Positions 50,965-55,318 of a stretch of DNA of 64,000 nucleotides are shown here, one piece after another. Source of the stretch: Escherichia coli (lineage in GTDB: Bacteria; Pseudomonadota; Gammaproteobacteria; Enterobacterales; Enterobacteriaceae). The stretch is taken from the NCBI RefSeq assembly GCF_001677475.2, contig NZ_CP015229.1. One strand, given 5' to 3'. The position numbers were made by a program, and so were the translations under genes. Every line of letters starts with the position of its first letter. Positions within the stretch are counted from its first letter, which is position 1. The notes under the pieces are model-generated. The model had not been told where the DNA came from, did no database searches, and saw only the letters and a program-made list of their open reading frames with translations.

Positions 50965-51786
50965 ATGGTTATCCCCGCTAACGCGGGGAACTCACTGAAA
51001 ACACCGGCGAGATCGTATTTTTTGCCGGTTTATCCCCGCTCGCGCGGGGAACTCTACCGGAAGGCAGGCACATTAGATCAGGTGATCGGTTTATCCCCGC
51101 TCGCGCGGGGAACTCCAGTGAGCGGAAGAAGAATGACTAACAGAGAGCGGTTTATCCCCGCTCGCGCGGGGAACTCCCCAGCCACAACAGCCACGCGTCG
51201 CGCTGTTCCGGTTTATCCCCGCTCGCGCGGGGAACTCGGAAACCGCCCCGGCGGTGGTTGGCTGTTTGCCGGTTTATCCCCGCTCGCGCGGGGAACTCTT
51301 TGCGCCGGAAATAGGAATCGTATTCGGTCTCGGTTTATCCCCGCTCGCGCGGGGAACTCTTATGCATCTCATCAAGCTTGTCGCCAAACGACGGTTTATC
51401 CCCGCTCGCGCGGGGAACTCTTAAATCGCGCTGGAAAAAAATGGTTTTTGCGCGGTTTATCCCCGCTCGCGCGGGGAACTCACACCCCGTTGCAATAAAT
51501 GGTCTGGGGGCTGCGGTTTATCCCCGCTCGCGCGGGGAACTCCAAACGCTTCTTCGTAGGCAGCACTGTAGGCCCGGTTTATCCCCGCTCGCGCGGGGAA
51601 CTCGGTGAAAAGATGAGTGCATACTGGTTTGTTTTCGGTTTATCCCCGCTCGCGCGGGGAACTCTCTTTTCCCGCTAATCACGACCAGATCCTGTCCGGT
51701 TTATCCCCGCTCGCGCGGGGAACTCGTAAAACCTCCTCGCGCCCACAATCGCAGCGGCGGTTTATCCCCGCTCGCGCGGGGAACTC
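50965..51786 (-). CRISPR. CRISPR array 2 (type I-E): 13 identical 29-nt repeats plus 1 degenerate terminal repeat, 13 spacers of 32 nt
   Basis: Repeat CGGTTTATCCCCGCTCGCGCGGGGAACTC recurs at 51026 + 61k for k=0..12. Degenerate distal repeat (GGTTATCCCCGCTAACGCGGGGAACTC) at 50966-50993. Leader on the queE side. Confidence 0.97.
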
Positions 51787-51960
51787 TCTAAACATAACCT
51801 ATTATTAATTAATGATTTTTTAAGCCAGTCACAATCTACCAACTTTACAGGATCACACAAACAACACATCTATTATGTTAAAGAGCACTTAATCCATTGA
51901 TTGAAAAGGTAAATATTTAAAATAACTCTATACAAACTAAAATCTACCAAACTCCGACGT
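51787..51960 (-). promoter_or_regulatory. CRISPR array 2 leader (AT-rich)
   Basis: AT-rich; contains CACAATCTACCAAC about 44 nt from the first repeat, shared with the array 1 leader. The outer boundary is approximate. Confidence 0.6.
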
Positions 51961-52125: not shown

Positions 52126-52797
52126 TCAGGCAATATTTAAATATTTATGTGTTTGCATCGACAAACGCCAGTTACGCGCAATGCAAGTTTCAATGCACAA
52201 ACGTGTGGCATCATCCTTTTGGCTAATCGGCTGCAGTGCAATGACTCGCGGTTTATCATCGGTCAGCGTCGCAAGCAATTCATCCAGTGCTTCGATATCA
52301 CGTACGCGTCCAACTGGGTGTTTGATTTCGTTAGCTCGCTCCAGGGCTTGCGACAATACTTCATAACCACCACGCATATTTAGCTTTGGCGACACGGTGA
52401 CCCAGGTATTCGGCGTACAACGCACTTCATGAGTACCGCTGGTTTCTATCTGGCAACTGAAACCGTTCTTTTCGAGCAGGTCAGTTAGTGGCATCAAGTC
52501 ATGAATACAAGGTTCACCACCCGTAATCACCACGTGACGCGCGGTGTATCCCTGACGACCGATGACTGCGAGTAAGTCTTCACTGCTTGCTGCTCCCCAC
52601 TTATCACTCTCTTTCGTTTTACCTAGAATGCTGAAAAGGGAAACTTCCCGATCCTCAAGCTTTTCCCATGTGTGTTTGGTGTCGCACCAGGCACAGCCGA
52701 CCGGGCATCCCTGTAAACGAATAAAAATAGCGGGGACGCCGGTAAAGTAACCCTCACCTTGCAGGGTCTGGAACATCTCGTTAATCGGGTACTGCAT
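52126..52797 (-). CDS. queE: 7-carboxy-7-deazaguanine synthase (radical SAM)
   Basis: 223 aa; radical-SAM Cys cluster (…RLQGCPVGCAWCDT…). Confidence 0.95.
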   Translation of the reverse strand: MQYPINEMFQTLQGEGYFTGVPAIFIRLQGCPVGCAWCDTKHTWEKLEDREVSLFSILGKTKESDKWGAASSEDLLAVIGRQGYTARHVVITGGEPCIHDLMPLTDLLEKNGFSCQIETSGTHEVRCTPNTWVTVSPKLNMRGGYEVLSQALERANEIKHPVGRVRDIEALDELLATLTDDKPRVIALQPISQKDDATRLCIETCIARNWRLSMQTHKYLNIA

Positions 52798-52969
52798 AGC
52801 ATTCTCTGTGAAGTGGATAATTGTTAATTATTGCAGATCCTGCCACAACAATCATGTCTTATTAACATTCTGTTACAGGCAGGTTTAAAGAAAAATGAGA
52901 AACAGATCGTTAATAATAAAAGGGAGTAACGTATTATGTCAGAAATAAATAAAGTAAAGGGATTTAATC

Positions 52970-53077
52970 ATGTCAAAAACATTCACCAAAATTATACTTA
53001 TTTTTTCTGTGTTCGTTTTTAATTATAACGAATCTCAAATTACCGATGCCGCCGTCAATTTATTTATCCAGCTTTAA
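52970..53077 (+). CDS. Candidate small hydrophobic protein (35 aa), hypothetical
   Basis: ATG 52970 preceded by AAGGGA at 7-nt spacing; [35 protein letters not shown] has a TM-like N-terminal segment and ends 14 nt before the ygcG ATG. No homology evidence. Confidence 0.25.
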
Positions 53078-53090
53078 TGGGAAATTTATA

Positions 53091-53945
53091 ATGCGCTATT
53101 TCATACTAATATTCACATTCGTGTGTTCCTTTGTTGCAGCCCAACCAACTATTGTCCCACAATTACAGCAACAAGTTACGGATCTTACGAGTAGCTTAAA
53201 CTCACAAGAAAAGAAAGAACTGACGCGGAAGTTAGAATCTATTTTCAATAATACCCAAGTGCAAATTGCTGTATTAATTGTTCCCACAACCAAAGACGAG
53301 ACAATTGAACAATATGCTACACGGGTTTTTGACAATTGGCGTTTAGGAGATGCCAAACGTAATGATGGGATACTGGTCATTGTTGCCTGGTCGGATCGTA
53401 CTGTCCGCATCCAGGTAGGTTATGGGCTGGAAGAAAAGGTAACCGATGCTCTGGCTGGAGATATCATCCGTAGCAACATGATACCCGCATTTAAACAACA
53501 AAAATTAGCTCAGGGATTAGAGCTAGCTATAAACGCTTTGAATAACCAACTCACTTCACAACACCAATATCCGGCTAATCCTTCAGAAAGTGAATCAGCG
53601 TCTTCCAGTGATCATTATTACTTTGCTATTTTTTGGGTATTTGCAGTGATGTTCTTCCCTTTCTGGTTTTTTCATCAAGGCAGTAGTTTTTGTCGCGCAT
53701 GTAAAAGTGGAGTCTGTATTTCAGCAATCTATCTTTTAGATTTATTCCTGTTCTCCGATAAAACTTTTTCCATTGCTGTATTTTCCTTCTTTTTTACTTT
53801 CACCATATTTATGGTCTTTACCTGTTTATGTGTACTTCAGAAAAAAGCATCTGGTAGAATTTATCATTCAGACAACAGCGGTTCCGGTGGCGGCTCAGAT
53901 AGCGGCGGATTTAGCGGCGGGGGCGGCGCATCTGGCCGCTGGTAA
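53091..53945 (+). CDS. ygcG: TPM-domain (TLP18.3/Psb32/MOLO-1-like) membrane-associated protein with Gly-rich C-terminal tail
   Basis: Start at ATG 53091 ([18 protein letters not shown]…, signal-peptide-like); ORF-track ATG at 53046 lacks an SD. TPM domain, TM segment, Gly/Ser-rich tail. Confidence 0.8.

Positions 53946-54004: not shown

Positions 54005-55318
<1,314 letters not shown>

Follow-up and report, generated by a model that had tools for sequence, protein, structure and literature searches.

YqcG of Escherichia coli K-12 is a small protein of 46 aa (YQCG_ECOLI; WP_001288228.1). The original descriptions are said to be those of Hemm et al. in 2008 and 2010, in which the K-12 protein was reportedly detected as a tagged protein and induced by envelope stress. 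On strains with the K-12 type of allele, RefSeq annotates a 46-aa 'cell envelope stress response protein YqcG'. The location of yqcG was published in 2008, and the EcoCyc name of the product is likewise cell envelope stress response protein (PMC5821084). A transposon (TraDIS) study recorded sparse insertions in yqcG and listed it as 'potentially essential' (PMC5821084). The text of a ribosome-profiling preprint does not name yqcG. In genomic SELEX, the RpoD-holoenzyme and H-NS bind the spacer between queE and yqcG (PMC3946193). PhoP binds 300-600 bp upstream of queE, a segment that covers the yqcG region, and deletion of yqcG in a K-12 delta-mgrB strain raised queE transcription (PMC4974570). 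The DNA of the yqcG region may also be relevant in cis for queE.

Other E. coli strains carry lemA at the same position. In brief, LemA family proteins are approximately 200 aa long (e.g. WP_000944226.1) and are defined by a domain of approximately 150 residues (Pfam PF04011), which in intact E. coli LemA covers residues 32-193 (E = 4.6e-48). In the lemA-type strain HR5-1 the order of the locus is queE, lemA (200 aa), three TPM-domain genes, IS4 and eno. The lemA-TPM operon decays in various ways: the first TPM gene is truncated in strains KE48 and ECOR29, the last two TPM genes have given way in ECOR29 to an unrelated hypothetical gene of 120 aa, and IS4 lies between the last TPM gene and eno in HR5-1 and AR_0077.

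Here we describe a 35-codon open reading frame (ORF) on the plus strand of the window, that is, the whole 64,000-nt stretch of E. coli DNA that was analysed. The ORF begins with the ATG at 52970 and ends with the TAA at 53075-53077. It corresponds to the gene yqcG, in an allelic state that is common in nature, and is thereby already known. A search of the accessible literature found no paper linking yqcG to lemA, and the origin of yqcG as a remnant of lemA may be a small new observation.

Genomic context

The features of the locus are listed in Table 1. The spacer between queE and ygcG is 293 nt long, with 30% G+C. A promoter and terminator scan gave three promoter-like sites against 1.8 expected, which is not above background, and zero terminators. 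A search of window positions 52400-53400 against Rfam (E <= 1) found no RNA family.

Table 1. Coordinates of features at the queE-eno locus of the window
Feature	Position	Strand	Remarks
queE (7-carboxy-7-deazaguanine synthase)	52126-52797	-	Divergent neighbour; from the ORF list and RefSeq annotation of matching loci
AT-rich spacer between queE and yqcG, divergent promoter/regulatory region	52798-52935	.	First 85 nt identical in yqcG-type and lemA-type strains
SD1, AAGGGAG	52920-52926	+	Serves the yqcG start at 52936; predicted anti-SD duplex -7.9 kcal/mol
28-aa ORF	52936-53022	+	yqcG start codon and 13 in-frame codons; the extra A puts the remaining codons out of frame
SD2, AAGGGA (retained lemA ribosome-binding site)	52957-52962	+	7 nt 5' of ATG 52970; aligns with AAAAGGGATTTAAACATG of HR5-1 lemA
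35-aa ORF	52970-53077	+	C-terminal 33 codons of yqcG (residues 14-46), read from an internal (ancestral lemA) ATG
Homology with codons 1-30 of lemA (signal peptide, pre-domain region)	52970-53059	+	90 nt, ungapped, in frame
A run, indel site	52975-52979	+	A5 in the window, A4 in K-12; sets which start is in frame with the hydrophobic tail
ORF tail, TAA and 13-nt spacer before ygcG	53060-53090	+	Resembles the lemA stop/TPM1 start junction; short similarity, suggestive
ygcG, TPM-domain protein, 284 aa	53091-53945	+	Downstream gene of the remnant operon; Pfam PF04536, E = 2.5e-37; RefSeq
eno	54005-55303	-	Beyond ygcG in the window

Direct reading of the sequence agreed with the preliminary description of the locus on the ORF at 52970-53077 and on its SD, AAGGGA at a spacing of 7 nt. 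The distance from the stop codon to the ygcG start had been put at 14 nt; the actual gap is 13 nt, with the ATG of ygcG at 53091. The predicted anti-SD duplex of this SD (SD2) is -5.1 kcal/mol, the same value as for the SD of lemA. The SD in front of the upstream ATG (SD1) is predicted to be stronger than SD2 (-7.9 vs -5.1 kcal/mol). SD1 is common to the yqcG-type alleles with four and with five As in the A run, here termed A4 and A5, and is missing in the lemA-type strains, which have AAATGAAG. The SD of ygcG is weak, at a predicted -4.2 kcal/mol.

The length of the ORF alone lies within chance, since 34% of 2000 shuffled versions of the spacer, with dinucleotides preserved, contained a complete ORF of at least 35 codons starting with ATG. 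A chance ORF is ruled out, although the length is unremarkable, because the reading frame shows homology both with yqcG and with the 5' part of lemA.

The 'TM-like segment' reported earlier stands as an apolar stretch. Its core is 10 residues, a length that fits the h-region of a signal peptide better than a full transmembrane helix; the criterion applied for single-pass small membrane proteins was a hydrophobic segment of approximately 18-20 residues. The best 19-residue Kyte-Doolittle mean of the 35-aa ORF is 1.22, with a usual cut-off of 1.6, compared to 1.43 for K-12 YqcG and 1.91 for the N-terminus of LemA.

The queE allele of the window is rare and strongly divergent. At least 99% identity was found in 32 of 5421 complete E. 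coli genomes, and only 90-95% identity in 5059. Compared to K-12 queE, dS is 0.54 and dN/dS is 0.01, and the distance to other E. coli alleles (91-92%) is about that to E. albertii (89.9%). Strain AR_0077 is 99.8% identical to the window in the yqcG region and 91.4% identical in queE, which implies a recombination breakpoint near the queE start. A CRISPR array at approximately 51147-51808 adjoins queE; its repeat, CGGTTTATCCCCGCTCGCGCGGGGAAC, is of type I-E and recurs every 61 nt. This array is the source of many short 'FIPARAGNS'-type ORFs and is annotated as CRISPR in K-12-type records.

The ygcG gene is a mosaic. Its 3' four-fifths are 90-91% identical to the last TPM gene of the lemA-type strains KE48 and L046, and its first approximately 175 nt (approximately 58 codons) have no close match in the lemA-type loci sampled. 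Constraint on ygcG is weak (dN/dS 0.3-0.44), and the annotation of strains ETEC6334 and CI5 lists it as a pseudogene that contains an internal stop.

Identity with yqcG and annotation

Of 5426 complete E. coli genomes searched by megablast with positions 52700-53200, 5421 gave a match. When aligned with the 46-codon yqcG of strain BW25113 (K-12), the window differs by one extra A and scattered substitutions. Owing to this A, the frame from ATG 52936 stops at 53022 after 28 codons. The 28-aa and 35-aa ORFs jointly reconstitute the 46-aa YqcG, and 27 of 33 residues are identical between the 35-aa ORF and residues 14-46 of the K-12 protein. In a protein search, the frame-repaired 46-aa sequence matched YqcG clusters with E = 1e-13 to 1e-19. 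The window allele has the synteny of yqcG, between queE and ygcG, and its sequence similarity, and lacks an intact 46-codon ORF. Searches of NCBIfam and Pfam with the 28-, 35- and 46-aa peptides gave no match (hmmscan E <= 1 for the 35- and 46-aa peptides).

The proposal of a small-protein gene between queE and ygcG is borne out, the locus being yqcG. The overlapping 28-aa ORF at 52936-53022, which had been offered as an alternative, does exist; it is not an alternative, both ORFs being parts of one gene that is split by the +1 A. Nor was the gene missed by annotation, as had been suggested: RefSeq names either yqcG or its pseudogene, and the exact 35-aa sequence is already in GenBank. For this allele RefSeq gives one pseudogene, with the note 'frameshifted', that spans both ORFs (the equivalents of 52936-53077 in strains AR_0077 and AR_0081). 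The exact 35-aa sequence is found in GenBank/UniRef on at least 1000 contigs (e.g. ANO90581.1), deposited under names such as 'membrane stress resistance protein' and 'small protein involved in the cell envelope stress response'.

The putative variants P0004, P0006, P0008 and P0027 of the protein database, 46-47 aa long, are encoded by some E. coli assemblies and may be real alleles or homopolymer assembly errors. In them the extra A is offset by another indel in the T run further downstream, which brings the common C-terminus back into frame with the upstream start.

Homology to the 5' end of lemA

Over the 85 nt of the spacer next to queE, HR5-1 and the window do not differ, and the SD and start of HR5-1 lemA (AAAAGGGATTTAAACATG) align exactly with window positions 52957-52972. 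From the ATG onwards, 53 of 90 nt (59%) are identical between the window and lemA. Shuffled sequences gave 26.0 +/- 4.1 identities, and 0 of 10,000 reached 53. After nt 90 the identity drops to 2 of 18 nt. At the protein level, BLASTP of the 35-aa ORF against LemA gave 40% identity over residues 1-30 (12 of 30 identical). The N-terminus of LemA, MLRIFIVIIFIFNLSGCGYNDIQTYDEQVN, corresponds position by position with the first 30 residues of the 35-aa ORF, and both peptides have the pattern M..F..II.IF......YN[DE].Q..D..VN in common.

The LemA domain is missing as a whole from the 35-aa ORF. In terms of the LemA family (PF04011), the ORF has homology to the N-terminal region and synteny, and does not have the domain of approximately 150 residues. 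The lipobox [LVI][ASTVI][GAS]C is present as LSGC in LemA; the 35-aa ORF has no match to it and contains no cysteine. The alignment identifies the surviving part as pre-domain lemA, comprising the n-region and h-region of a signal peptide of the lipoprotein type.

The coding sequences of lemA and the ORF differ in length by 603 - 108 = 495 nt, which is 165 codons, in frame. A junction of the layout TAA, 13 nt, ATGCG is found between lemA and the first TPM gene (TPM1) of HR5-1, L046 and E. albertii, and not at the TPM2 or TPM3 junctions. In addition, the tail of the 35-aa product, ..F.Q.. before the stop codon, loosely matches the C-terminus of LemA, ..FSQNANAH before its stop codon. The length difference in whole codons, the layout of the junction and the likeness of the tails suggest an in-frame internal deletion that kept the translational layout of the operon. 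It should be noted that the likenesses of the stop/start junction and of the C-terminal tail are short and are to be read as suggestive.

The ancestral operon

One genome per species was scanned for the conserved N-terminus of queE, which gave at least 120 Enterobacterales loci, 94 of those listed having at least 1 kb upstream of queE. Among the matches listed, lemA was found in 4 of these 94 loci, 96% identical in E. albertii and in the representative of a second Escherichia species and 38% identical in two others. Also among the matches listed, eno lies within 500 nt of queE in 14 species. E. albertii and the representative of the second Escherichia species have lemA and three TPM genes between queE and eno. 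A protein search found the YqcG protein family confined to E. coli and Shigella. Since lemA is present in E. albertii and the second Escherichia species, the lemA-TPM cluster is placed at the level of Escherichia, and the yqcG state is regarded as derived within E. coli.

A simple two-breakpoint deletion of the present-day lemA operon is ruled out. Window positions 53005-53265 have no close relative in the lemA-type strains sampled (HR5-1, L046, KE48 and ECOR29) or in E. albertii, and ygcG is a mosaic of TPM paralogues. The deletion history given below is a reconstruction from present-day sequences rather than an observed intermediate.

Allele frequencies and stability of the A run

Alleles were counted in the 5426 complete E. 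coli genomes using allele-specific 36-mers and 37-mers and a megablast word of 28 nt, at which there was no cross-match. The window type, A5, is present in 1162 genomes (21%) and the K-12 type, A4, in 2722. In a further 1452 genomes (27%), an intact 200-aa lemA and up to three TPM-domain genes are found in place of yqcG. These three classes cover 98% of the genomes.

The window haplotype is combined with A4 in one complete genome only, and the exact K-12 haplotype is combined with A5 in at most one. At least 11 genomes combine A5 with a separate haplotype that resembles that of K-12, termed the WEC type. The length of the A run is a stable lineage marker among the complete genomes. An assembly or sequencing error in the homopolymer is ruled out by the presence of A5 in 1162 complete genomes with linked SNP haplotypes, and phase variation of the run is unlikely, off-type combinations of haplotype and run length being near zero.

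Which allele is older

Several observations bear on the order of the two alleles. Only the A4 allele needs a gap in the alignment against lemA. The lemA-type outgroups carry the G that the window has in SD2, where K-12 has T. In the K-12-type alleles SD2 is mutated to AAATGGA (-3.1 kcal/mol), as it is in O169:H41 and ETEC6334. Five divergent haplotype groups, the K-12-like WEC type among them, make up the A5 alleles, and the A4 alleles sampled are nearly uniform, with an identical 36-mer in 2718 of 2722. In the lemA strains the upstream ATG is followed by a stop after one codon and has no SD.

From these observations A5 is probably ancestral to A4, and the most parsimonious order is then intact lemA, followed by the 35-aa remnant, followed by the loss of one A in K-12. 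YqcG of K-12 would then probably be a derived fusion of the remnant to the upstream ATG. The presence of SD1 and the upstream ATG (ATG1, at 52936) in both A4 and A5 leaves room for the opposite order, in which the ancestor may have been A4, encoding 46 aa, and an A was later added in the lineage of the window.

Selection on the peptide

Diversity and selection were assessed on 17 sampled alleles. The 35-aa ORF has variable sites at 15 of 108 positions (13.9%), the queE-proximal spacer at 18 of 138 (13.0%), the 34-nt region of the N-terminal extension at 6 of 34 (17.6%) and the first 300 nt of ygcG at 23 of 300 (7.7%). The variable sites in the ORF, which number only 15, comprise 13 nonsynonymous and 2 synonymous sites; approximately 3 synonymous sites would be expected under neutrality. 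With these 17 alleles an omega of 0.3 or below is rejected with p = 0.008, and an omega of 0.2 or below with p = 0.0008. Pairwise dN/dS is 0.5-2.1 for the 35-aa ORF, 0.01-0.02 for queE and 0.3-0.44 for ygcG. The substitutions K7E and Y19D change the charge in or beside the apolar core. The peptide sequence is under no detectable purifying selection, the numbers being small.

The last seven residues, AVNLFIQ, are invariant, and the frame is open in all sampled alleles, including nine of the A5 type. The invariant AVNLFIQ and the always-open frame may be due to selection, acting either on the peptide or on the initiation region of ygcG. Conservation of the reading frame in related genomes, on which the preliminary description had let its proposal depend, is found in part: the frame is open in 9 of 9 sampled A5 alleles, but it is restricted to E. 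coli and Shigella, is replaced by lemA in 27% of the genomes and shows no purifying selection.

Proposed history and function

We consider it likely, with fairly good confidence, that the 35-aa ORF is the lemA-derived part of yqcG in the A5 state and a remnant, probably translated and probably functionless, of a lemA gene that has lost its domain. The ancestral Escherichia operon would have had lemA and three TPM-domain genes between queE and eno. The LemA domain was then lost, probably by an in-frame internal deletion of approximately 165 codons. Such a deletion would have left the ribosome-binding site and start of lemA, approximately 30 codons of the signal-peptide region, a few codons of the tail, and the stop codon at its distance of 13 nt from the next gene. 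In the K-12 lineage, the loss of one A would have brought the remnant in frame with the upstream ATG and its strong SD, giving the 46-aa YqcG, so that the 13-residue N-terminal extension of K-12 YqcG would be former 5' UTR. In the window, the extra A would leave the upstream start with a 28-aa out-of-frame product, and the remnant could start only at the old lemA ATG (ATG2, at 52970).

In the window, ribosomes probably load mostly at SD1 and ATG 52936 and make the 28-aa nonsense peptide. Fewer ribosomes would initiate at the lemA SD and ATG 52970, and these would probably make the 35-aa signal-peptide-like product at a modest level. This modest translation is deduced from the lemA initiation region, which is kept on the ygcG mRNA. 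The product would be a short, uncleaved, signal-peptide-like peptide without a sequence-specific function. Only the ribosomes that initiated at 52970 would end 13 nt from the weak ygcG start, in the way of ribosomes on lemA in the intact operon, and translational coupling to ygcG may be the main consequence of the arrangement. Translation at ATG2 is argued against by the position of this codon within the 28-aa ORF, whose SD is the stronger one and whose ribosomes could occlude it. In one A5 haplotype group, that of O169:H41 and ETEC6334, SD2 is degraded, and translation from ATG2 is thus not obviously maintained.

An alternative is that the ORF encodes a functional small membrane protein, a shorter isoform of YqcG in the envelope-stress response, of which the core and tail matter and which either start can serve. 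We regard this as unlikely. It would account for the open frame in all nine sampled A5 alleles, for the invariant AVNLFIQ and for the fact that in each major allele one start with an SD shares the frame of the tail, namely ATG1 for A4 and ATG2 for A5. Double-frameshift variants that restore the C-terminus are found in the protein database, although the search is biased and recovers only proteins with that tail. K-12 YqcG has, moreover, reportedly been detected as a tagged protein and induced by stress by Hemm et al. in 2008 and 2010, which is mirrored in the RefSeq and EcoCyc names. However, the excess of nonsynonymous over synonymous sites (13 vs 2) and a diversity equal to that of the non-coding flanks argue against a functional peptide, as do the absence of the ORF from the 27% of E. 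coli genomes that have lemA instead, and from species outside E. coli and Shigella. The apolar core has only 10 residues, and the adjacent ygcG is weakly constrained and a pseudogene in some strains.

The locus could also be a dead, untranslated pseudogene that acts only as leader sequence 5' of ygcG and, with H-NS and PhoP sites, as cis-regulatory DNA for the divergent queE promoter. The pseudogene call of RefSeq fits such a role, as do the rise in queE transcription upon yqcG deletion, the binding of PhoP to the region (PMC4974570) and the binding of RpoD and H-NS to the spacer (PMC3946193). The ORF also evolves like the non-coding flanks, and its length is within chance. On the other side, the SD and ATG of lemA are kept at the predicted strength of intact lemA, the region must be transcribed, as this is needed for the expression of ygcG, and the K-12 sister allele is translated according to what Hemm et al. 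are said to have reported in 2008. We find a dead pseudogene improbable; it differs from the translated remnant only on ribosome initiation at 52970.

It is further conceivable, if doubtful, that YqcG is a small protein which originated in the signal peptide of a lipoprotein gene since deleted, and that two start-codon solutions have been kept, the old lemA start in A5 and a start recruited from the 5' UTR in A4, with selection acting on the tail or on its translation next to ygcG and queE. The selected tail might then be, for instance, a membrane peptide feeding the PhoQ/QueE envelope-stress circuit.

It is highly improbable that the 46-aa YqcG is still made in A5 strains by a +1 slip of tRNA-Lys on the A run, or that the run is a phase-variable switch: a slip at 52975-52978 would fit the geometry, the 28-aa frame reading GTC AAA AAC so that AAA can pair again without mismatch after a shift of one base downstream, and a 46-aa version of that kind does occur naturally (P0001; strain FCI1), but five As are short for efficient slippage, no stimulatory element was found and Rfam gave no match, and the run is stable by lineage, with one genome having the window haplotype and A4 and at most one having the exact K-12 haplotype and A5.

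Consequences for annotation and essentiality

The same 141-142 nt are annotated as a named small-protein gene in half of the E. coli genomes and as a pseudogene in a fifth, and GenBank submitters annotate the 35-aa product. An essential or conserved role of yqcG is argued against by the frameshift in 1162 genomes, the replacement by lemA in 1452 and the viable delta-yqcG strain. The sparse transposon insertions in yqcG are possibly due instead to the binding of H-NS to the AT-rich spacer. YqcG, a validated small protein of K-12, appears as a neutrally evolving remnant of lemA, and it clearly shows how the decay of a gene can give rise to a small protein that is detectable. The finding on yqcG is ordinary, with a modest evolutionary twist.

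Comparison with known systems

The window ORF shares with K-12 YqcG the locus, the strand and the stop codon 13 nt before ygcG. Unlike K-12 YqcG, it has lost the hydrophilic N-terminal extension of 13 residues and has Met-Ser from the internal ATG instead, and the allele is a pseudogene in RefSeq.

Compared to intact lemA, the window ORF has the same position, orientation, SD, start and spacing from the stop codon to the next gene. It differs from LemA in having neither the domain (residues 32-193) nor the LSGC lipobox, and the shared 90 nt are only 59% identical.

Short upstream ORFs that are translationally coupled to a downstream gene are a general arrangement in bacteria, and the window ORF resembles them in ending 13 nt before a start with a weak SD on the same mRNA. 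In contrast to such leader ORFs, the layout in the window would be a legacy of the parent operon and would not have evolved as a leader, and the coupling to ygcG is, for this locus, a presumed one.
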